Shown here: positions 27,709-62,120 of the stretch, piece by piece
Layout: the number at the start of each line of letters is the position of its first letter
Numbering within the stretch: the first letter of the stretch is position 1
Assembly: GCA_029262815.1 (NCBI GenBank)
Contig: JAJCYS010000038.1
Coordinates: 15,182-79,181 of the forward strand
DNA length: 64,000 bases
DNA from: Deltaproteobacteria bacterium
Lineage (GTDB): Bacteria; Bdellovibrionota; JAJCYS01
Reading direction: 5' to 3'
The notes under the pieces: model-generated
The model's database searches: none
Seen by the model: the letters and a program-made list of their open reading frames with translations, nothing else
Told to the model about the DNA's origin: nothing
Program-made: the position numbers and the translations under genes

Positions 27709-28341
27709 ATGAGTCAAATTATTGGTTTTTTTCAACAAGGGGGGATGTTTATGATACCGATCGCCCTGTGTTTGCTATTTAGTGTGGTTATCAGTATTGA
27801 ACGGTTCTTCAAAGTCTATTACCTGTATAGCATCGACAGCACCTCCTTTATTTCCAAAGTTCAAAATCTGACCCTTCAAAAAAATTACGACCAAGCCATT
27901 TCGCTCTGCAACTCAAAGGAAACAGCTCTTTTACCCCGCGTTATTAAATCCGCACTTCAGGGAGCCAACGAAACAGAACACAAAGTAAACATCCGAATCG
28001 AAGAAGCTACGTTGGGCGTACTGCCGCTTATTGAAAAAAGACAATCCATCCTGCCGATGATTGCAAACGTTGCCACACTGCTCGGACTGCTCGGTACGAT
28101 TGTGGGCTTAATCGAAGCCTTTGGTGCGGTTGCATCAGCCGAACCTGCCTTAAAAGCTGAGCTGCTCACACAGTCCATTTCGATCGCGATGAACACAACT
28201 GCATTTGGATTGATTGTGGCGATTCCCACCAATATTTTCCACACCATCATTCAAGAGCGGGCTACAAAAATCATCGGAGATATCGATCAGTATGCCGTAC
28301 GTATTTCTCATTTATTAAGCTTGAGTAGTGCTAAAGGATAG
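27709..28341 (+). CDS. MotA/TolQ/ExbB-family proton channel
   Basis: 210 aa; three TM segments with LLGLLGTIVGLIEAF block typical of ExbB/TolQ. Confidence 0.75.
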   Translation: MSQIIGFFQQGGMFMIPIALCLLFSVVISIERFFKVYYLYSIDSTSFISKVQNLTLQKNYDQAISLCNSKETALLPRVIKSALQGANETEHKVNIRIEEATLGVLPLIEKRQSILPMIANVATLLGLLGTIVGLIEAFGAVASAEPALKAELLTQSISIAMNTTAFGLIVAIPTNIFHTIIQERATKIIGDIDQYAVRISHLLSLSSAKG

Positions 28342-28347
28342 AAGAGC

Positions 28348-28896
28348 ATGAGACCTCCCAGCCAGCGAAGTTATCGTCGCAAACAGGAACAGGAACTCGA
28401 ACTCACGCCGATGATGAGCCTTTTTGTTGGGCTGGTACCTTTTCTGTTAACGCTTGCCGTATTCACAAAAGTGACCTTAATCTCCCTGCCCTTGCCAAAA
28501 GTAGCCCAAACAGAACAAGAGATCCGAAAAGTAGAGAAGGAAAAATTCTATCTCAGGGTGTATATCATCGATCGTAAGACAAAAAACCAAGTCCGTGGGC
28601 GACCGGGATTCGTGGTAGATAGCAACGCCTTTCGCAAAGGACCCAAATTTCTGCCCCTAACCAAAGAGAAGTCGTACGACACAACGGGGCTCAACGCCGT
28701 AATGCTTGAGGTTAAGAAGAAGAATATCAAACGGAAAAATGTCATTATCATTTCGGGTAAATATGTAGGGTTTCAGGATTTGGTCAGGACTTTAGATGCG
28801 ACACGTGAAATTCTACCCGAATTGGCTGTGAACAATCCTGAACTTCTAGGTGTAGAGCTTTTTCCTGACGTTATTATGGATGAGGCAGGTAGTTAG
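28348..28896 (+). CDS. ExbD/TolR-family protein
   Basis: 182 aa; single N-terminal TM preceded by a LELTP motif. Confidence 0.6.
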   Translation: MRPPSQRSYRRKQEQELELTPMMSLFVGLVPFLLTLAVFTKVTLISLPLPKVAQTEQEIRKVEKEKFYLRVYIIDRKTKNQVRGRPGFVVDSNAFRKGPKFLPLTKEKSYDTTGLNAVMLEVKKKNIKRKNVIIISGKYVGFQDLVRTLDATREILPELAVNNPELLGVELFPDVIMDEAGS

Positions 28897-29422
28897 AGAT
28901 ATGAGTCGATTTAAATCGAAACGTCGCGCTCGAGCCCAAACGCCGCAGCTTCAAATCACATCACTCCTTGATATTATGACGGTACTGCTTTTCTTTTTGC
29001 TCAAAAGCTTTGGCACCACACCTGAATTGAACATTTCAAAAAATCTTGAATTACCTAAAAGTGTCAGCACACGACCTGCGGTTTATGCGTTGAATATCGC
29101 CGTTTCAAAAAACGAGATCTCAGTTGATGGAGAGTCGATTATCGCATTGCAAGGCATCAGCAAGGAGACAAAACGTTTGCCTCAAGCTGTATTTCGGAGA
29201 GATCCTGATTTGATTGCTCCGCTCTTTGAACTCTTGGCCAAAAAGAGAAGTTACGCCGCTAAACTTGCAAAACGCGATCCGCTTATAAAATTCAAAGGCG
29301 ACTGTATCATTCAAGCTGACCAAGACACGCCATTTCACATTATTAAAAAGGTGCTCTATACGGCTGGTCAGGCTGGGTATTTGATGCTCAATGTCGCGAC
29401 CTTGTCGACAAAAGATATTTAA
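28880..29422 (+). CDS. ExbD/TolR-family protein (second copy)
   Basis: ITSLLDIMTVLLFFLL TM block; likely start at MSRFKS (28901). Confidence 0.6.
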   Translation: MRQVVRDMSRFKSKRRARAQTPQLQITSLLDIMTVLLFFLLKSFGTTPELNISKNLELPKSVSTRPAVYALNIAVSKNEISVDGESIIALQGISKETKRLPQAVFRRDPDLIAPLFELLAKKRSYAAKLAKRDPLIKFKGDCIIQADQDTPFHIIKKVLYTAGQAGYLMLNVATLSTKDI

Positions 29423-37665: not shown

Positions 37666-38078
37666 CGCTTAGATGTTCGCTCCGTTGCAATACTAAATTT
37701 CGTTACCTTATTGCGTTGTAATATATCAAAAATCTTGACCACTATACCATGGGGGGTGGCTTTGTCCGCTTCGATTAATAATTGCTTCTCAGTCAAGCTC
37801 GGCATATTTTTGATCGTTGTTTCTAGCTCTTGAGCGGTAATCGGTTTTGATCGCCAATAAATTTGGCTTTTTTCATCAATCGAAATCACCAACGGCACAC
37901 TTTCCCCCGTTCCTTTTTGCATACTGGTCTTCGGCAGATCAATCTGGAGCGGGTTATGTTTGATGAATGTAGTAGACACCATAAAAAAGATTAACAATAA
38001 AAACACCACATCAATGAGCGGTGTCAAATCAATCGAAGGCACCTCTTCAGAAACCGATTGTTCATCAAATTTGATCAT
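37662..38078 (-). CDS. ExbD/TolR-family protein
   Basis: IDLTPLIDVVFLLLIFFMV canonical ExbD/TolR motif; 138 aa. Confidence 0.8.
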   Translation of the reverse strand: MIKFDEQSVSEEVPSIDLTPLIDVVFLLLIFFMVSTTFIKHNPLQIDLPKTSMQKGTGESVPLVISIDEKSQIYWRSKPITAQELETTIKNMPSLTEKQLLIEADKATPHGIVVKIFDILQRNKVTKFSIATERTSKR

Positions 38079-38700
38079 GTCGCTTCTCTAAGAACAGGGT
38101 TTCGTACACGTTATCTAACTCTGATTCAATCGCGGTCATAATCGTCAAAGATCGATTTCGAATCACTTTATGAGCCACAAATGTTGGAATCGCAACCAAC
38201 AATCCAGCGATCGTAGTCAACAAAGCTTCAGATATCCCCCCCGCTAAGTGGCTTGCATTTCCTAACCCATGGGTATTAATCGTCTGAAAGACATGCATCA
38301 TCCCAAGCACCGTACCCAACAACCCCAAAAGAGGTGCAATACTGGCAACCGTCGAAAGCATATCCACACCACGCATCAATTGCTTTTGGACCATCGTCAT
38401 CGGCCCACGCATCCTTTCAGCGGTTTCTTTGGATCCGTGTGATTGATACTCCAACATTTTTAACACGAGATAACTCACCGGACGGTTCGAATGTTTAAGA
38501 CGCCCGATCACTTCATTTGCCTGATCAGAACCTAAATGCTTCAACTCATTAAGCAACGACTTAGGCAAATGATACCCATTTCGTAAATACACCAAACGTT
38601 CCAAAAAAACGGCCAGTGAAACCACAGAAATTAACAAAATAACCCCAAGGACAGGCCCGCCTTGTTCGAATAACGCTACCCAATCAATTGTCATAATCAA
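38065..38700 (-). CDS. MotA/TolQ/ExbB-family proton channel
   Basis: 211 aa; IAPLLGLLGTVLGM block. Confidence 0.8.
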   Translation of the reverse strand: MIMTIDWVALFEQGGPVLGVILLISVVSLAVFLERLVYLRNGYHLPKSLLNELKHLGSDQANEVIGRLKHSNRPVSYLVLKMLEYQSHGSKETAERMRGPMTMVQKQLMRGVDMLSTVASIAPLLGLLGTVLGMMHVFQTINTHGLGNASHLAGGISEALLTTIAGLLVAIPTFVAHKVIRNRSLTIMTAIESELDNVYETLFLEKRHDQI

Positions 38701-47767: not shown

Positions 47768-47799
47768 AGTCTCGAAAAACCATACCCAAAAAGGGTTTC

Positions 47800-47844
47800 A
47801 GAGCACAGTCTTTTTTTCTTTACAAAGAAAAAAGGCTGTGCTCT
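47800..47844. terminator. bidirectional terminator-like hairpin (stem AGAGCACAG / CTGTGCTCT, long A/T loop)
   Basis: Perfect 9-bp stem flanking an A/T-rich palindromic loop, between convergent-free genes 46160-47767 and 47928-48431. Confidence 0.35.
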
Positions 47845-47927
47845 AGTACAACCTAATTTGAACAAACCCAGTTTTGTGTCACATATGTGGGTTTCGTCAA
47901 TTTTTATTAATTTAAGAGGAGGAAACT

Positions 47928-48431
47928 ATGAATTTAAAAGTTTTATCAGTCGCGTTGGTCGCAAGTTTTTTGGTTGTTACAGCGTGCAGCAGCAGCAAAT
48001 CACCTAAGGGCAAAAGTGATGCCGCAAGTGTTTCTATGTCAATTTCAGCAAAAAACAATAAATTCGAATTGAATGTTGATAAATTTAAGATTGAAGCTTT
48101 GAAGGAAGTCAAAAATACAGATGCTATGAAAGCGCTTAAAGATCTAAACGGTAGCTTCTCTATCGCACGTAAGGCAGAGAATGACATCACAAGTGGCAAA
48201 TGGGTTCATACGGATGGTGACAAAGTACATTCAATTGCATTCACCAACGAAAACAATGTCTGGACATTCGCTAATGAAATCACTGGCGTCAAAGCGGACC
48301 ATGCGATGGCTATCTGGGCAAAACAAAAATCTACCATTACAGCTACAAAAGATGGCGGATTCACCATGTCTTTGACTTTGGCTGACAAAGACACTAAAAA
48401 CGTAACCGTTTCTGTACCGTTTAAGAAGTAA
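47928..48431 (+). CDS. lipoprotein, unknown function
   Basis: RBS AGAGGAGGAAACT before ATG; MNLKVLSVALVASFLVVTACSSS lipobox. Confidence 0.6.
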   Translation: MNLKVLSVALVASFLVVTACSSSKSPKGKSDAASVSMSISAKNNKFELNVDKFKIEALKEVKNTDAMKALKDLNGSFSIARKAENDITSGKWVHTDGDKVHSIAFTNENNVWTFANEITGVKADHAMAIWAKQKSTITATKDGGFTMSLTLADKDTKNVTVSVPFKK

Positions 48432-48462
48432 GTACTAACCTACCCAACTGTAGGTCAAAAAA

Positions 48463-48497
48463 ACCTGGCGTCATTTAATTGGCGTCAGGTTTTTTTA
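48463..48497 (+). terminator. intrinsic terminator (stem with G-U wobbles, T7 tract)
   Basis: ACCTGGCGTCA ... TGGCGTCAGGT followed by TTTTTTT; A-tract upstream. Confidence 0.5.
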
Positions 48498-48605
48498 TTT
48501 GCTCCTCCACAGTGTTCTTTATTGACCTACGGCCTCCACCCTGCTTGGTTTAAATATGGTATTATGGTACTGTGGGAGCTGATTTTAGAGCCGGAGGGTA
48601 GTCAT

Positions 48606-49238
48606 ATGCGTCGGGGAATTCTTTTTTTTACACTTATAGCTGCATGTTTTGCAGGATGCAAATCGGATGTTGAAAAACGCCAAAAGTTGGATGAGTTCAT
48701 GCTCTCCATCACATCAAAAGCTTATATCTTCAAAGGACTGACTGTAACCAAGACTGTTAAGTCAAAAGAAGTGAGAACAGATGGCAAAACCTGGCTGGCA
48801 TATTTTACAGACAAGGTCTTTCCGAACGTTCCAGATGATGTGGAAAGAGATCTTAGGCTGATACTTGATAACAAAGACAAATTCGTAGGATCAGAGTTCA
48901 AACTAGGTGCCGCTGCGTGGCGATATACTCGAAACTCAGAAAAATTCCCTCTCGAAAAAAATGGCATGATTGAGTGGAAACGTGCTGATGGGGGGAGCTT
49001 ATTTAGACCTGATTATTTACAAAACGAAACATATTTTTCATTTTTTGGCCCTTTCGGTACAGGGACAGTTGCCAAAGACGCTGAGTTAGAGGACTACGAA
49101 AAGCCTCTTATTCGTTTTTTTCAAAAAAAGAAACTAGAAGTCACTGCTGAGGACAACAAGCAAGAAAAACTCAAGCTTAATTATTACATAGAAGGCATTG
49201 TTGCTTTCTCTCTCAGCTTTGAGCAAAAGAAAGAGTAA
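48606..49238 (+). CDS. lipoprotein, unknown function
   Basis: Start at ATG 48606 (MRRGILFFTLIAACFAGC) with GGAGGG upstream; the ORF-track start at 48522 is an extension. Confidence 0.6.
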   Translation: MRRGILFFTLIAACFAGCKSDVEKRQKLDEFMLSITSKAYIFKGLTVTKTVKSKEVRTDGKTWLAYFTDKVFPNVPDDVERDLRLILDNKDKFVGSEFKLGAAAWRYTRNSEKFPLEKNGMIEWKRADGGSLFRPDYLQNETYFSFFGPFGTGTVAKDAELEDYEKPLIRFFQKKKLEVTAEDNKQEKLKLNYYIEGIVAFSLSFEQKKE

Positions 49239-49265
49239 ACCATCATCAGAAGAGGAGGACATCTC

Positions 49266-50132
49266 ATGAGATATAGCCGATTTTATTGCCTTCTGGCATG
49301 TTGCATGGTGCTTACAAGCTGCACACGTAACAACACCGAACCGACTGCGAAGTTCTTATCTGTCCTATTTACCTCACATGCGGCACTGCTAAATGCAACC
49401 AAAACGCCAAGCGCTGAGAATGATAAAAATTTAAAATTTTTTAGAATGACACATGGTCGATATTTTGGGAATGAGATGGAAACATTCGCAAAATTTGATG
49501 CTATCTACAAAGGGGAACTTTATTGGCTGTTCAGTCAGGGACCTGATCGTGAAACATACATTTGGATGGTGTACAAACTGCCTGAAGGCATGCCCTCAAC
49601 TCTACAGACAAAAAAAGATGAAAAAGATAAGAAGAAGGATGAAAAAGATAAGGAAAAAGAGGTTGATCCCAAAAAACCACTTGTCGGCTGCTCGCAATTT
49701 ATGATGTCGATTGAAACGACATACGAAGGCGGATTGGCCTATGCCTATGATACTGAGTTGCCCACTATTAGCATGGGGCCTTGGATACAAATGGATTATT
49801 CCGGGGAAAAGCTGGCTATCAAAAAGTTAAGCACAAAATACATTAATTCGTTCTTTACGCTTATCCAGCATGAGAGTGGAAGCATCAAAGCACGTTGGCA
49901 GAGTGACAGCTCTATAGCAAGAATCAAAATATCCCGCGTTAGACCCGTAGAGCCCTATGCCTATGTTGATTTAGTTCCAGCTGAACCAACTGCATACATT
50001 AAGGATGCGCTAAGGAAGAATGTTAGATACACGTTTTTGAAACACACGATAAAAAAATCAATTAAAAAGAAAGATGAGAAGGAAGACACTGAAAAAGATA
50101 AAAAAGACAACAAGGAAACCAAAGAGGATTAG
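49266..50132 (+). CDS. lipoprotein with Lys/Asp/Glu low-complexity segments
   Basis: MRYSRFYCLLACCMVLTSC lipobox; KKDEKDKKKDEKDKEKE internal and KKKDEKEDTEKDKKDNKETKED C-terminal tracts. Confidence 0.6.
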   Translation: MRYSRFYCLLACCMVLTSCTRNNTEPTAKFLSVLFTSHAALLNATKTPSAENDKNLKFFRMTHGRYFGNEMETFAKFDAIYKGELYWLFSQGPDRETYIWMVYKLPEGMPSTLQTKKDEKDKKKDEKDKEKEVDPKKPLVGCSQFMMSIETTYEGGLAYAYDTELPTISMGPWIQMDYSGEKLAIKKLSTKYINSFFTLIQHESGSIKARWQSDSSIARIKISRVRPVEPYAYVDLVPAEPTAYIKDALRKNVRYTFLKHTIKKSIKKKDEKEDTEKDKKDNKETKED

Positions 50133-50135
50133 ACC

Positions 50136-50702
50136 ATGAAATTTCTGATCACTGCCTGTGTGTACAGCATCTTCATCTTTGGAAGTATCGGCTGTAAATC
50201 CAAAAATCCTGCGGATTTAAAACGAACAATCGAAAGTGGGCGTCAATTCTATGAATTGGTGGGCGTCAGCAGTCTTGATTCTGGGTATAAAGATTTACGC
50301 AAAGAAGTCAGTTTCTGGCACTTTGGCCCTAAACGGTTGACAATTCTTTTGAACAAAGCGACACAAGAAGCCACAAAACCAGCAACAGTTGAACGACCTG
50401 ATGGGCTTTTTTATGGGCCGCTCAGTGCATTCAAAAAAATCAAGACTTCTGATCGATTGCTAGCGGGGTCAGACAGATTGAAGGGCAGAACATTAAGACT
50501 CAAAGAGTGGCCCCAGCAAATGAAGGCTTTTATCATGCGTCAGCAAGCAGATGGTAGCCTAAAAAAAGACGTTGAGCTGACATTCAAAAAAGTGGATTTA
50601 CCGAGTGCGAAATTTTCTGTGATTTGGCCGGATCATCTGAAGGCTCCGGAGCCTTTGAAGCCCAAAGAACAAAAGCTGCAACCCATCTCCTCCAAAAAGT
50701 AG
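50136..50702 (+). CDS. lipoprotein, unknown function
   Basis: MKFLITACVYSIFIFGSIGC lipobox; 188 aa. Confidence 0.6.
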   Translation: MKFLITACVYSIFIFGSIGCKSKNPADLKRTIESGRQFYELVGVSSLDSGYKDLRKEVSFWHFGPKRLTILLNKATQEATKPATVERPDGLFYGPLSAFKKIKTSDRLLAGSDRLKGRTLRLKEWPQQMKAFIMRQQADGSLKKDVELTFKKVDLPSAKFSVIWPDHLKAPEPLKPKEQKLQPISSKK

Positions 50703-50731
50703 ACGGATCGCAGCTTTTTGAGTTCAAACTA

Positions 50732-52078
50732 TTATTTTTTCCTCCAATCTTTCCATTTGTTTTTCCAATAGTCTTTGGTCTGCTCCAGCGCACCTTTTTC
50801 TTGTTCTTTAACTTTTGGTTTTAACCCATACTGACGATTAACCTCATTTAAAGTTTTGTTATATTCTGCATTTAACTCATTGATCTCCAGCTGAAAATCC
50901 TGCTTATCTTCAAGAGTAAGGGCGGGTTTCACGTCTTTCTTTTGTCTCTGATTAAATTCGTTCACTTTTTCAAGATATGCTTTTTGTTGTTTTTTACTCT
51001 TTTCTTCAAGTTTAGCAAACGCTTCATCACCTATGTACTTATCACTTTGACTGCTACTTTTGTCATCTTCTTCGGCACTCTTCTCTTGCGAGTTACCATC
51101 CTGTGATTTGCTAGAGTCGTCTTGTTGTTTAGTTTCGCCCTCTTGGGAATTGCCATCATCATTTGATTGGTTGTCGTCTTCTTTAGTTTCTTCAGATTTA
51201 CTATCATCAACTTGTTTTACAGTCTTTTGAACAGGCCCTTTAACAATCGGCTTCCCTTTGCTTAGCAGCTGACCTTTTTTATTAATGGTTACGTCATTTA
51301 TATCCACCGCTTGAAATCCAACTTCCATCGTAAACTGCACGGTTACCGTGCTCGCTTCAGTTACTTTTGCAGCTGCTCGAATAAACCCTTCATTTTTAGT
51401 TGGTGTAAATATAAGTTCAGGCACACGGGGACAAATCTGAGTAAATGAGCATTTCAATGTTACATCTAAATTTTCTTCGTAAGGTTTCCGAACGATGAGC
51501 TCCTCTTTCGCATTTTCCATATCCAAGTGAGTCGGCAATGGACGAATCGGTCCACTCCAAATCAACCCATTAATGGTATCGCCATTTTTGATCTCATATG
51601 GTGAGACCCAAGGATTTTTTGCATCTCGTTTTTCTGCAATAAAATCAACAAACGTACCTTTCTCTTGCTCAGTATCCCAATAAAACATCCGTATTTTGAA
51701 AGCCCCTAGTCCTTCTTTAGGAAAAAAGTACACAAATTTACCGTTCAATGTCGTCTCAGGCTTGCCCTTATACTGGAATGGTTCTCCTAGGAATGACTTA
51801 ACACCCTTATCGACCGCTGCCTGTGCCCTCGTTTTAATAAACGCATAATGATCACTAACCACAGTCCCTTTTAGCTCCTCAGGTAGAGGTACAAACCATT
51901 TATCTGTGTTCTTTTGAGTTAATTCCTCTTTGGTGACCTTTACAACATCTTCTTTCTTCAGCACCTGCATCAGCTTTTTATTAAACTCTTCTTCCTTGAG
52001 AGGAACGCCGCAGCCAACAAACACCAAAATACATACAATTGCAATAAAAAATTCTTGTTTTTTCATATATTTCAACAT
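50732..52078 (-). CDS. lipoprotein with acidic low-complexity linker, unknown function
   Basis: Start at 52078 (MLKYMKKQEFFIAIVCILVFVGC) preceded by AAAGAGGTG; acidic Ser/Asp/Gln-rich linker then Lys-rich coiled-coil-like tail. Confidence 0.6.
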   Translation of the reverse strand: MLKYMKKQEFFIAIVCILVFVGCGVPLKEEEFNKKLMQVLKKEDVVKVTKEELTQKNTDKWFVPLPEELKGTVVSDHYAFIKTRAQAAVDKGVKSFLGEPFQYKGKPETTLNGKFVYFFPKEGLGAFKIRMFYWDTEQEKGTFVDFIAEKRDAKNPWVSPYEIKNGDTINGLIWSGPIRPLPTHLDMENAKEELIVRKPYEENLDVTLKCSFTQICPRVPELIFTPTKNEGFIRAAAKVTEASTVTVQFTMEVGFQAVDINDVTINKKGQLLSKGKPIVKGPVQKTVKQVDDSKSEETKEDDNQSNDDGNSQEGETKQQDDSSKSQDGNSQEKSAEEDDKSSSQSDKYIGDEAFAKLEEKSKKQQKAYLEKVNEFNQRQKKDVKPALTLEDKQDFQLEINELNAEYNKTLNEVNRQYGLKPKVKEQEKGALEQTKDYWKNKWKDWRKK

Positions 52079-52294
52079 GTTACACCTCTTTAGGTTGCGA
52101 AAACTTCTTTTCAGTTGACCATAAAAAATAAGTTTAAGCAATTTAAAAAACACTAATCGTTTTATCGGTTATTTAGCTAATAGTTTTAACAGTTTATGCA
52201 TCTATTTAATATTTAATGAATTTATATACTTACACTAAATATTTTATTTATAAATGTCGATCAGACGGTGAGGTTTCATGAAGGAGGGGGGAAG

Positions 52295-53023
52295 ATGAGC
52301 TATTTCAACAACCGTTTGGTGGTGTGTGCGTTTTTGGGCGCGGGGCTGCTGATATTGCCTGCCCAAAGCAATGCGTTCCAACCTAATGACGCTGGCCTTG
52401 CAACACCCGACAACTTTGATCAGATGCCGATTCAGTACCACAACGGCTCACAAGCAAGCCCCTATGACGCTCCTCAAGGTTATGACATGCCCCAACGAGA
52501 TCTCCCTGCAGCTCCTGAGATTCCGCGACAGCCCGCTCAATTCCCGACTGCGCCTAACTTGAACGCCCCCCAAGATATTCAACAGGGCTATGATGCTCCG
52601 CCGCAGTACAACAGCTACCCACAGAATCAAAACCCGTACCCTGATGTTCAACGAGATCCCAACAGTGATTATATGGATAAACAGCCCCCCCCTAATATGC
52701 AACAAGGATATGACTCACTGCCTCAAAGTAACAGCTACCCTCAAACTCAAAACCCCTATCCAGATGTTCAACGAGACCCTGAATCACTCAATGATTCTGA
52801 TCCGTTTGATCAAAATCAATATGACCAAAACCCTCAAGATTATCCTTCTGAATTCATTGATTCAGGAGAACCAGACGCAAATCTACCTCAGGCGGATCGA
52901 CTACCTCTGCAAACACCTTTTGAGCCCCCACAGATTGATGATTTCTCACCTGAGCAAGAGTTACAAAATCCACAACCCTATCCTGAATTTGACCAACAAC
53001 AGCTGGATGACATTCGACAGTAA
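52295..53023 (+). CDS. secreted Pro/Gln/Tyr/Asp-rich repeat protein
   Basis: Start at ATG 52295 after GAAGGAGGGGGG; signal peptide ...LPAQSNA; internal direct repeat QQGYDxxPQxNSYPQxQNPYPDVQRDP occurs twice. Confidence 0.6.
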   Translation: MSYFNNRLVVCAFLGAGLLILPAQSNAFQPNDAGLATPDNFDQMPIQYHNGSQASPYDAPQGYDMPQRDLPAAPEIPRQPAQFPTAPNLNAPQDIQQGYDAPPQYNSYPQNQNPYPDVQRDPNSDYMDKQPPPNMQQGYDSLPQSNSYPQTQNPYPDVQRDPESLNDSDPFDQNQYDQNPQDYPSEFIDSGEPDANLPQADRLPLQTPFEPPQIDDFSPEQELQNPQPYPEFDQQQLDDIRQ

Positions 53024-53179
53024 GATAGATTGCTTCGGATAGTACGCCTGCGACGACAGATGGATCCCTGCCTCCGTGTATAGTCCCGAAAGATTGCAAG
53101 TATAGAAAGGAAGTGATAAGAGGGATAGAGTACAGCAACGGCCTGACACCGCCATCTCTACCAAAATATCGAATCGTCT

Positions 53180-59603: not shown

Positions 59604-59607
59604 TAAA

Positions 59608-59721
59608 GTTGCGCTGTACTACTCTCCCACAGGGCTACCCCTGCAGTACCATCGTCGCTGAGGAGCTTAACTGCCGAGTTCGGAATGGGATCGGGTGTTT
59701 CCTCCTTGCTATCAGGACAAC
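59608..59721 (-). rRNA. rrf: 5S ribosomal RNA (solitary)
   Basis: Minus-strand sequence ...CCGAUCCCAUUCCGAACUCGGCAGUUAAGCUCCUCAGCGACGAUGGUACUGCAGGGGUAGCCCUGUGGGAGAGUAGUACAGCGCAAC aligns block-for-block with bacterial 5S (CCGAACUC, GUUAAGC, CGAUGGUACUG, GGGAGAGUAG). Ends are +/-5 nt. Confidence 0.85.
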
Positions 59722-59726
59722 GAAAT

Positions 59727-59756
59727 CAAGGTATCAAGCGACCCCTCTCAAGTCAA
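59727..59756 (-). promoter_or_regulatory. candidate sigma70-type promoter for the 5S gene (TTGACT -35, weak TACCTT -10)
   Basis: On minus strand: AAAAGCTTGACTTGAGAGGGGTCGCTTGATACCTTGATTTCG then the 5S 5' end; spacing and -10 are imperfect. Confidence 0.3.
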
Positions 59757-59834
59757 GCTTTTGTTTGTTATACTAGGGTTGCACGATTAACACGTTCTCT
59801 ATCTGGCACGTGCGTGTTTCGAACGGGATGTTCT

Positions 59835-62120
59835 ATGACTGAAAAAGCCCAACGATGGGTATTTATCTTGTTTCTACTTATCGGGTCCTTATGGGTGGGT
59901 CCCCGGTGGATTCCCGCAGAGTGGCTCAAAGAAACCCTCGAGTCCTGGGTCACCACACATATGGGATTTACCCTCCAAACGGACAGTGTGGCTCTGTCGT
60001 TATTTCCGACCACCCAGCTCGTATGCAAAGACGTCACATTTTCTGGCGCCCCCCTTCCGTTCTCGCTCCAGACTACTGGCACCATCTCGCGGATGATACT
60101 GAAGTTTTCTATGATTAAAACGGCTTTGACCGGCCGACCCTTTGTCAACGTCCTGCTTGACGGTGCTCAGCTTGAAATTACGCCACATGAGCCACCCAAA
60201 GACCCCCTTCCCTACGTTGTCTTATCTTCACTCTTTATTAGGTCGAGTGACGCAGTCCTAACCCTAAAAAAAAACCGTATCCCCACAACCCTACATTCAT
60301 TTCAAATTGTTTTTGAGCCTAAGCGTAAAACGGCAACCTTACAAGGTGATATAACCCTACCCGAGTTTGCGCCAAAACCTGGATCACGTTTATCCACACA
60401 GATGACTTTGAACGGTTCAGTTGAGGCCCTCGAAGACGGCTCTCTATACATCCCACAGCTCAGGTTCCGAGCCAAAAATTTTAGCTACGTTTCTCTCGCC
60501 TACCAAATCAAACAAGGTCGAGGCCCTTTCTTTATGACCGCTTCGGGACTCTCTCTCTCTCGAGAAGGGTCTGGCACGGTAAAATCCCTTTTTCTCGGAC
60601 TCAATGACCACACCTTACAACTCACTGGACAATTTCAGACAACGCCTTTTCGTTTTATCGGACGGCTAGCCCCTTTTGAAACAACATTCAAAGACTTCCC
60701 TTTCGAATTGCTTCAAGATACGTTCCCAGGTGCTTCGGGAATAATCACCTTAAACAACCCGATAGGGCTGTCCTACACACACAGTCCCAAATCCGAATTG
60801 CAAATGGATCTTAAGGGGATCGCATTAAAAAATCTGTCTTGGCCCACACCTTGGTTCCTGCTTGAAGAGCCCGAGGCACGCCTATCTGGAAAACTATTTT
60901 TTCATCCCAAAGCAGGAATTCAACCATCGCGAATTGAATGGCGTAACGGTAAACTTGAGCTTGCACACAGTACATTGCTTATGGAAATCTCTACAGAGCC
61001 TGATGTAAACCGCACAGAAATTACACTTCAGCCTTTTGAACTTGATCTTTCACAAATTCCTCAGATCTTTGAAACGTTTCTTGGGTTCAAACACACGAGC
61101 GGCTTACTCACCAGTGCCACACCGTTGACCATTTCTAAAACAGAAAATACAACCGCGTTAGCAGGTCGATTACGAATCGATGAGGGCATAGGCACATGGC
61201 AAAAACAATGGCAGGTAGCAGGACTCACAGCTGATATGGTATTGGGGACACCAAAATCAGATCTCACTTTATCCATAAACAGCCTGACTCAAAAAAATGG
61301 GTGGCAACTCAAAAACCTTACTTTGCAAGGCAACCTGGCTCAAACAGGCGTATGGGAACTCAATCGATTCGCCACACAATTTAAAGACGGTACAGTTGTT
61401 CTAAAGGGCGGTGTGTTTGATCCAATTGCACATACGTTTACAGCAAAGTCTTTAAAAGGTTTTTTTGATCTTACAAAGTCTCGCGTACTCAATCATGTTG
61501 CTCCAAAAGCAAATTTAAGTTTAACGGGCAATCTTCGTTTTCAGATTAACCGCATGGGCATCCCGCTCACCCCGACGACACATCAGCCCAAATGGCATAA
61601 AATGGTCGGAGCATTTGAAAGTGAAATTGCGAATTTTTCCTGGCGTGACTTTGATATGCAAACCCCTTTTACAGAGCTGCTCGAATCATATTATGATCAG
61701 CTGCGAACTCGACGGGTTCGATCGCGTACCCTCGCAACTGAAACCATTCCCACATTAGAAACAACGTACAAAGGTACCATGAAGGGACAATTTTCCTCTC
61801 AGAATGTGATTGTCTCAGAGAGTACATTTTTCAATGCCACTAGTACATTCACCTTAAAAGGGAAAACAACAAAACTACCCGTGCCCCTTCAAAAAACACG
61901 TATAGATTTAAATGGCACGTACATCATCCACAAACCGGGATTTGCGGACCCTGTTATTCAAGAAATTCTACTAGATCCGAATCGGAACCTTCGCATTCCT
62001 GTTCAAATCCAAGGCACCCTTGGTAGACCTGATGCCTATTTTTTAAAAGCTGAAGCGTACCGAACTTTTGATCGACGTATTCAATCGCACCACATAGCCA
62101 AACCAACTAAGGGGCAATAA
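59835..62120 (+). CDS. AsmA-family protein (membrane-anchored, beta-rich envelope protein)
   Basis: Start at ATG 59835 (MTEKAQRWVFILFLLIGSLWV, single N-terminal TM); about 760 aa, repetitive beta-strand-like composition. The ORF-track start at 59685 overlaps the 5S gene. Confidence 0.6.
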   Translation: MTEKAQRWVFILFLLIGSLWVGPRWIPAEWLKETLESWVTTHMGFTLQTDSVALSLFPTTQLVCKDVTFSGAPLPFSLQTTGTISRMILKFSMIKTALTGRPFVNVLLDGAQLEITPHEPPKDPLPYVVLSSLFIRSSDAVLTLKKNRIPTTLHSFQIVFEPKRKTATLQGDITLPEFAPKPGSRLSTQMTLNGSVEALEDGSLYIPQLRFRAKNFSYVSLAYQIKQGRGPFFMTASGLSLSREGSGTVKSLFLGLNDHTLQLTGQFQTTPFRFIGRLAPFETTFKDFPFELLQDTFPGASGIITLNNPIGLSYTHSPKSELQMDLKGIALKNLSWPTPWFLLEEPEARLSGKLFFHPKAGIQPSRIEWRNGKLELAHSTLLMEISTEPDVNRTEITLQPFELDLSQIPQIFETFLGFKHTSGLLTSATPLTISKTENTTALAGRLRIDEGIGTWQKQWQVAGLTADMVLGTPKSDLTLSINSLTQKNGWQLKNLTLQGNLAQTGVWELNRFATQFKDGTVVLKGGVFDPIAHTFTAKSLKGFFDLTKSRVLNHVAPKANLSLTGNLRFQINRMGIPLTPTTHQPKWHKMVGAFESEIANFSWRDFDMQTPFTELLESYYDQLRTRRVRSRTLATETIPTLETTYKGTMKGQFSSQNVIVSESTFFNATSTFTLKGKTTKLPVPLQKTRIDLNGTYIIHKPGFADPVIQEILLDPNRNLRIPVQIQGTLGRPDAYFLKAEAYRTFDRRIQSHHIAKPTKGQ

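Follow-up and report, generated by a model that had tools for sequence, protein, structure and literature searches.

The FtsN, TonB/TolA and NlpD-type linkers are disordered, proline/glutamine-rich examples from the bacterial periplasm. In eukaryotes, salivary acidic PRPs, cereal prolamins and HMW glutenin are secreted, repetitive and non-globular proteins that are dominated by proline and glutamine (in part also tyrosine) and consist of many short tandem repeats. Proline and charged residues are scarce in prion-like Q/N domains, and mussel-type adhesive proteins are basic and rich in lysine. In bacteria, candidate prion-like proteins are known, but they make up a small fraction of the proteome (PMC6400439). 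For Escherichia coli, a preprint states that about half of the outer-membrane lipoproteins possess a disordered N-terminal linker (bioRxiv 10.1101/2021.01.05.425367). A further class is found in Mycoplasma pneumoniae, where the attachment-organelle proteins P65, HMW1, HMW3, P30 and P200 bear acidic proline-rich (APR) regions (PMC11940719). These regions are rich in D, P, N, Q, A and Y and contain short repeated motifs such as DPN(Q)AY (PMC11940719). Region I of P65 (residues 1-217), which harbors DPN(Q)AY repeats, has a disorder prediction and is believed to serve in contacts between proteins; a fragment covering most of this region was disordered in solution as judged by CD (PMC11940719).

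Here, we describe a protein of related character that is encoded in a 64,000-nucleotide stretch of bacterial DNA (referred to as the window). According to the ORF list, its gene is an intact open reading frame of 242 codons on the plus strand (52295..53023, stop included), which starts with ATG at position 52295 and ends with a stop codon at 53021-53023. The 242-aa product is identical to an NCBI protein, which is the sole database copy and belongs to a cluster with a single NCBI member. A strong, G-rich Shine-Dalgarno sequence, GAAGGAGGGGGG, can be read directly from the sequence at 52280..52291 (+), that is 4-15 nt 5' of the ATG. Because this element is located within the extension that would result from an alternative start at GTG-52268, we consider ATG 52295 to be the true start. 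Further upstream, a consensus scan returned a candidate sigma-70-type promoter (TTAACA, 16 nt, AATATT; 52186..52213, +) with 9/12 matches, positioned in an AT-rich region common to the gene and a divergently oriented lipoprotein gene. As such promoter-like sites are no commoner in this DNA than in shuffled sequences, the site constitutes weak evidence. At the 3' end, a consensus scan for a terminator gave no match, and the fold of this region was no better than that of shuffles (z = 0.91).

The frame stays open over 242 codons despite a GC context of 40%. Its CAI of 0.768 and its GC3 of 0.417 fall within the range of 17 housekeeping genes of the window (CAI 0.72-0.80), while the two off-frames of the same ORF yielded CAI values of 0.625 and 0.663; this codon usage is native to the genome. 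The stop codon is separated from the convergent lon gene by 156 nt, which contain stops in all frames, and loss of a downstream domain by frameshift is therefore excluded. The gene is thus a genuine protein-coding gene, and the initial annotation, which had assumed a coding gene with an export signal, agrees with the Shine-Dalgarno sequence and ATG, the native codon usage and the signal-peptide anatomy. A sequencing artefact or a frameshifted pseudogene, considered there as well, is at odds with the intact frame, the in-frame arrangement of its repeats and the pattern of purifying selection between them (see below).

The N-terminus of the protein displays the features of a Sec-type signal peptide (residues 1-27; 52295..52375, +), as also proposed at the outset. 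By inspection, it can be divided into the n-region MSYFNNR, a 14-aa h-region (LVVCAFLGAGLLIL) with a mean Kyte-Doolittle value of 2.86 and the c-region PAQSNA, which is followed by F. This corresponds to what is expected of a substrate of Sec and signal peptidase I, i.e. a positive n-region, an h-region of about 10-15 residues and small residues at -3/-1. The predicted cleavage site is located between SNA and F; position -3 is occupied by Ser and position -1 by Ala, in accordance with the -3/-1 rule, so that signal peptidase I probably cleaves after Ala27. In the AlphaFold2 model, residues 5-15 within the signal peptide form a helix. A lipobox of the PS51257 type, in which [LVI..][ASTVI..][AGS]C places the Cys at about position 15-35, was not present in the protein, whose only cysteine (position 11) is preceded by Val, and inspection of the signal peptide revealed no twin-arginine motif. 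A second hydrophobic segment was likewise missing, the maximal 19-residue hydropathy after the signal peptide being -0.48.

The sequence that follows has an unusual composition. Residues 27-242 consist of 18.5% P, 16.7% Q, 13.0% D, 7.9% N and 6.5% Y, with Q and N together contributing 24.6%. There are 36 acidic residues (D+E; 16.7%) versus 7 basic ones (K+R), a single Lys, neither Cys nor Trp, and an aromatic complement of 14 Tyr and 8 Phe. The mature protein of about 215 aa has a calculated mass of about 24.6 kDa and a pI close to 4, and its net charge is around -29. In a comparison of 1788 ORFs (100 aa or longer, from 1.4 Mb of fetched bacterial DNA), this protein ranks first in P+Q content (39% per 100 aa), and it is the only ORF of such P+Q content in the window.

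Several properties indicate that the mature protein is probably disordered and lacks a globular domain. Its GRAVY value is -1.46, and a Uversky <H> of 0.338 versus a boundary of 0.461 places it well within the disordered region of the charge-hydropathy plot. The longest proline-free stretch comprises 12 aa, and the longest stretch free of P, D, E, K and R comprises 10 aa. A single-sequence AlphaFold2 model had a mean pLDDT of 53 and a pTM of 0.13 and contained no strands; as a poor model is expected without an alignment, it serves to corroborate disorder only. Apart from the signal peptide, helices were restricted to four residues at 219-222 and a short C-terminal segment at 234-241, the latter being the only segment outside the signal peptide with a pLDDT near 78 and helical DSSP. 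This terminal helix is part of an acidic C-terminal region (residues 165-242; 52787..53020, +), in which two more loose QNPxxYP motifs occur. Charge-hydropathy, proline spacing and the AlphaFold2 model thus agree, and the earlier description of the sequence as disordered-looking is upheld by its side of the Uversky plot, by a proline at intervals of at most 12 residues and by the pTM of 0.13.

The protein also contains an internal duplication. A repeat search at the DNA level identified two copies of 94 nt each (52566..52659 and 52686..52779, both +), which are 77% identical and offset by 120 nt, equivalent to exactly 40 codons, and are hence in frame. The conserved cores of the copies correspond to residues 92-124 (PQDIQQGYDAPPQYNSYPQNQNPYPDVQRDPNS) and 132-164 (PPNMQQGYDSLPQSNSYPQTQNPYPDVQRDPES). 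When these 33-aa cores were aligned without gaps, the BLOSUM62 score was 143, while 300 composition-preserving shuffles gave a mean of 48 (sd 8) and a maximum of 99. The repeat is therefore not a by-product of the biased composition. The conserved motif, QQGYD-x2-PQ-x-NSYPQ-x-QNPYPDVQRDP, extends over some 27-33 aa, and most of the positions conserved in it are occupied by Gln, Asn, Tyr or Pro. The protein contains two clear copies only. A shortened, degenerate echo (SPYDAPQGYDMPQRDLP, residues 55-71, QGYD...QRD; 52457..52507, +) gave off-diagonal matches of 41-42, and both this echo and the four loose QNPxxYP motifs score within the range of the shuffles, which makes the echo merely suggestive. 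Tandem Repeats Finder did not call the repeat. A PPxY-like PPQY in copy 1 was dismissed as a chance occurrence, since copy 2 has LPQS at this position. Two near-identical repeats of about 40 aa had been reported for this protein in the initial annotation; the 40-aa period and the two clear copies stand, while near-identity does not, given that the copies are only about 73-77% identical.

The two copies also provide a record of selection. Over the 32 aligned codons, 12 differ synonymously only and 8 non-synonymously, and 18 of the 28 nucleotide differences are located at codon position 3. For the 27-codon core, the Nei-Gojobori dN was 0.082, with the synonymous sites being saturated and dS undefined. 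This saturation implies that the duplication is old. In contrast, the same DNA read in frame +1 has a dN/dS of 2.7. As dN is far below dS in the actual frame only, the repeat motif, judged from the internal duplication alone, is maintained by purifying selection. Moreover, since the conserved positions are mostly Q, N, Y and P and not just Asp, the pattern suggests that a partner recognises the motif and that bulk charge is not what matters.

We then turn to the relatives of the protein, for which all searches came back empty. A word-indexed search of 5.8 billion clustered proteins retrieved only the protein itself, and a full HMMER pass over 1.84 billion representative proteins did not yield a homologue. 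No matches were obtained against Pfam, NCBIfam, PHROGs and PADLOC, nor against PDB sequences at E values up to 10. The same applies to tblastn against plasmids and phages and to scans of metagenome and viral contigs with back-translated patterns. Within the reach of these searches, the protein is a strict, lineage-restricted orphan that belongs to no known family. Based on the match in GC3 and CAI and the lack of phage, plasmid, viral-contig, PHROGs and PADLOC matches, we consider the gene to be native rather than recently imported.

The host lineage itself appears to be sparsely represented. The adjacent Lon has four relatives at 65-68% identity in the protein database; the next matches are at about 46-49%, and many of them are labelled Bdellovibrionota, Oligoflexia, Bacteriovoracaceae or Halobacteriovorax. 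In a species-representative genome collection, the Lon scan recovered nothing above 44% identity, and a metagenome scan with PpiD gave no match. The pattern of Lon similarity therefore points to a poorly sampled, deep Bdellovibrionota-like lineage as the source of the DNA. Of the 29 proteins of the window that were scanned, about half lack a Pfam domain, which makes the occurrence of an orphan less surprising.

The gene lies in the interval between ppiD and lon, which spans 5.4 kb (47768-53179) in the window and contains six genes, five of which encode lipoproteins. Four of the orphan lipoprotein genes lie on the plus strand (47928-48431, about 48603-49238, 49266-50132 and 50136-50702, all +), and a fifth, which encodes 448 aa, is divergent from it (50732-52078, -). 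Each of these 5/5 upstream ORFs between 47928 and 52078 passes a PROSITE-PS51257-type lipobox test, so the early remark that the gene sits next to a lipoprotein cluster was accurate. The gene has its own upstream region and does not form an operon with the lipoprotein genes. None of the five lipoproteins could be assigned to a family in Pfam, NCBIfam or PHROG. A Cas8g match on the first lipoprotein (16.7 bits) was weak and taken as chance. The 448-aa lipoprotein is likewise a strict orphan, and its AlphaFold2 model was poor (pLDDT 39, pTM 0.22). Four of the five lipoproteins are net basic (+3 to +16), as opposed to the charge near -29 of their acidic neighbor; the value of +16 belongs to the product of 50136-50702. 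No paralogy was detected among the six genes or to genes elsewhere in the window.

The islet is bordered by ppiD and lon and lies close to mreC, mreD, pbp2 and rodA. We compared this context with that of one relative (L081, a JGI contig of 497 kb with a Lon of 65% identity), the only one of the Lon relatives at 65-68% that offered usable context. On this contig, the genes run DUF502, an ORF of about 800 aa, 5S rRNA, a 97-aa ORF, acetyltransferase, thiolase, FadB, Lon, the ppiD-lon interval, PpiD, MreC, MreD, PBP2, RodA, an ORF of about 440 aa, aminotransferase IV and ExbB. The window is collinear with this contig for all shared genes, and 12 backbone proteins match at 24-68% identity; the 97-aa ORF and the acetyltransferase that follow the 5S rRNA in L081 are absent from the window. 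The ppiD-lon interval of L081 measures 0.7 kb and contains one HNH endonuclease gene. The six islet genes had no match in L081 or any other fetched locus, and conversely, the islet contained no HNH remnant and no nucleotide similarity to the L081 interval. In L083, another Lon relative, the neighborhood is different. As an integrase, a tRNA and notable flanking direct or inverted repeats were not found and the codon usage is native, the islet does not appear to be a recent import. Rather, it has the appearance of a lineage-specific group of envelope genes that evolves fast and occupies a variable site.

How does this protein relate to the systems described above? By analogy, it would work most like the APR regions and the Gram-negative envelope linkers. 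The Mycoplasma APR regions resemble it in composition, length and indicators of disorder, and it possesses a single DPNSDY. However, we detected no sequence homology to the APR proteins, and tandem DPN(Q)AY repeats are missing; the APR repeat unit comprises 5-6 aa, whereas that of the orphan protein comprises 40 aa. In addition, the APR proteins belong to the cytoplasmic cytoskeleton of a wall-less bacterium and have coiled-coil or other domains, while the orphan protein is predicted to be exported by Sec in a diderm and has no other domain. The periplasmic linkers of Gram-negative bacteria share with it the predicted compartment, the extended, proline-rich and non-globular character, and a possible function as spacer or in reach across the periplasm. 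Such linkers tether a folded domain to a membrane anchor, but the orphan protein has no folded domain and, if cleaved, no anchor; it amounts to the linker part alone. An NlpD-like LysM lipoprotein with a P/E/Q-rich linker is encoded in two Bdellovibrionota loci (L007 and L020).

The remaining classes are more distant. The eukaryotic acidic PRPs, prolamins and HMW glutenin are similar in composition only, with no homology. These Pro/Gln-rich proteins have many short tandem repeats, while the orphan protein has a single 40-aa duplication and is far more Asp-rich. Two analogies put forward in the initial annotation did not hold. With prion-like Q/N-rich domains, the protein shares the Q+N content of 24.6%, the tyrosines and the low complexity. 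Such domains are, however, cytoplasmic and depleted in proline and charge over tracts of some 60 residues or more, and the orphan protein is rich in proline (18.5%) and acidic residues (D+E 16.7%), has no P/D/E/K/R-free tract longer than 10 aa and is predicted to be exported. Similarly, its Tyr content of 6.5% is reminiscent of mussel-type adhesives, but a single Lys and a pI near 4 speak against this comparison. Among the scanned neighbors, there was no tyrosinase-like domain. The protein has no homology to the CsgA or FapC repeat families in Pfam or NCBIfam, and no CsgG- or FapF-type secretion gene was recognised nearby, as none of the islet proteins has a Pfam or NCBIfam match. The protein is novel in sequence, but it is a member of a familiar class, namely that of lineage-restricted, exported, disordered proteins of low complexity.

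Taken together, we consider it somewhat more probable than its opposite that this orphan is an exported, disordered and polyanionic protein of the envelope that serves as a bivalent linear-motif ligand or spacer. Export by Sec and subsequent cleavage by signal peptidase I after Ala27 would release a non-globular chain of about 215 aa. Its function would then lie in the two copies of the conserved linear motif of about 27-33 aa, displayed on an extended, proline-stiffened, polyanionic chain, and the protein, located in the periplasm or on the cell surface, would bind bivalently or act as a spacer. As partners, the neighboring orphan lipoproteins, most of which are basic, or another component of the envelope would be the best candidates. 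The lipoproteins are proposed because of proximity and charge complementarity only (+3 to +16 versus near -29), and a functional linkage drawn from these two observations is a guess. We infer cleavage, disorder, final location, partners and role of the protein from its sequence.

The same features may be read in other ways. The protein might be released beyond the outer membrane as a surface matrix, adhesion or prey-contact factor, possibly cross-linked via its tyrosines. Its Tyr/Pro/Gln-rich chain would in this case form a coat on the cell or attach to prey or substratum. The signal peptide without a membrane anchor and the 14 Tyr and 8 Phe, set among sticky Q, N and P residues, would suit such a factor, as would the location, since variable islets often carry surface genes. 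The Lon similarity also leads to the Bdellovibrionota, many of which are predators. However, a Sec substrate of a diderm remains periplasmic unless it is moved further, and in the islet we saw neither a system for secretion across the outer membrane nor a sorting signal or an enzyme for cross-linking; the single Lys and the acidic pI are also unlike known adhesive Tyr-rich proteins. We regard this reading as unlikely, though it is the most plausible of the alternatives. The surplus of acidic over basic residues (36 versus 7), the 13% Asp, the pI near 4 and the disordered character would alternatively be compatible with a polyanion of the periplasm that, like acidic proline-rich or biomineralisation proteins, binds or buffers divalent cations such as Ca2+ or Mg2+. 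As no known Ca-binding motif or family was matched and the selection acts on a 27-aa motif composed mostly of Q/N/Y/P, arguing for recognition rather than charge alone, we deem this improbable.

Self-assembly of a prion-like or functional-amyloid protein through Q/N/Y-rich repeats appears extremely unlikely. High contents of proline and charge strongly disfavor a cross-beta core on prion-propensity scales, and here Pro accounts for 18.5% and Asp+Glu for 16.7% of the residues, Pro recurs at least every 12 aa and no stretch free of proline and charge exceeds 10 aa. AlphaFold2 predicts no strands, and neither the protein nor the islet genes matched a curli or Fap family. These points stand against the Q+N content of 24.6%, the 6.5% Tyr, the repetitive sequence and the fact that candidate prion-like domains do occur in bacteria (PMC6400439). 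We also considered that the ORF might be non-functional, either an annotation artefact or a decaying remnant in an intergenic islet of fast turnover, which would explain why no search found a homologue, why the interval is variable with a different gene at this position in L081, and why the sequence is of low complexity and no terminator was detected downstream. This is very hard to reconcile with 242 open codons at 40% GC whose usage is native, with the textbook signal peptide and the strong Shine-Dalgarno sequence, and with a dN far below dS between the copies in this frame only; the 156 nt downstream, with stops in all frames, also leave no room for a lost domain. A further extension concerns the physical state of the protein. 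With Tyr/Phe and Gln/Asn as stickers, Pro as spacers, a highly negative charge along the chain and the two conserved 27-aa motifs providing specific valency, it could coacervate with the basic, Lys-rich lipoproteins into a periplasmic or surface condensate or gel, which we judge to be very improbable. If it were true, this would represent an envelope-organising mechanism not yet described in bacteria.

Returning to the exported, bivalent envelope protein as the reading we favor, the gene opens no long-standing question, and it would gain wider interest only if phase separation or multivalent motif binding turned out to be the way in which its product organises the envelope. What is most notable concerns method: an internal duplication by itself suffices to show purifying selection on an orphan, without orthologues. 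For the lineage, the protein is a candidate for envelope and surface proteomics and a marker of the variable ppiD-lon islet. If our reading is true, the protein would add to the cases in which bacterial lineages with poor sampling have made envelope components of their own out of disordered, low-complexity sequence.

The interval between ppiD and lon is a variable spot, spanning positions 47768-53179 of the window and 12566-13260 of L081, a locus on a 497-kb JGI contig from a relative whose Lon is 65% identical to that of the window. In the window, this interval comprises six orphan genes, five of which encode lipoproteins and one the exported Pro/Gln-rich repeat protein (52295-53023), whereas in L081 it contains a single gene for an HNH endonuclease. 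Around the interval, gene order is otherwise collinear between the two across about 25 kb of the window.

Three hairpin-forming inverted repeats within the interval look like terminators. They are positioned 3' of ppiD (47800-47844), 3' of the first lipoprotein gene (48457-48496) and between convergent lipoprotein genes (50671-50718). No comparable hairpin was found 3' of the repeat protein gene. The lipoproteins encoded in the interval have charged low-complexity tracts of their own: KDEKDK-type 21-nt repeats (49611-49652 and 50091-50111) in a 288-aa lipoprotein and, on the minus strand, a D/S/E/K/Q-rich stretch (51031-51250) followed by long predicted helices in a 448-aa lipoprotein.

The window also contains a 5S rRNA gene (59606-59722, minus strand; 95.7 bits), which stands alone, as neither a 23S nor a 16S rRNA gene is present anywhere in the 64 kb. 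A lone 5S rRNA gene likewise occurs at the syntenic position in L081 (5255-5371), between an ORF of about 800 aa and the thiolase gene. An unlinked 5S rRNA gene thus seems to be conserved within this lineage. Over its first 38 nt, the neighboring ORF in the window, listed as 811 aa (59685-62120, plus strand), overlaps the 5S rRNA gene, and the true start of the ORF is therefore probably located further downstream. This ORF has no Pfam domain, but the corresponding ORF of L081, which occupies the equivalent place, is 24% identical to it. Elsewhere in the window, an ExbB-ExbD-ExbD cluster is located at 27709-29422; a second, separate ExbB-like gene (38065-38700) is kept in L081, where it adjoins an aminotransferase IV gene.

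The source genome is not part of the species-representative genome collection, in which the best Lon match reached 44%. Its proteins, from a contig of 102,098 nt, form single-member NCBI clusters only, and about half of the 29 window proteins scanned have no Pfam domain. Among the loci compared, the next most P/Q-rich genuine protein after the repeat protein is a LysM lipoprotein resembling NlpD, whose acidic linker is rich in Pro, Glu and Gln; it is encoded on the minus strand less than 10 kb from lon in two Bdellovibrionota loci (L007 and L020). This shows that such linkers do occur in envelope proteins of the Bdellovibrionota.
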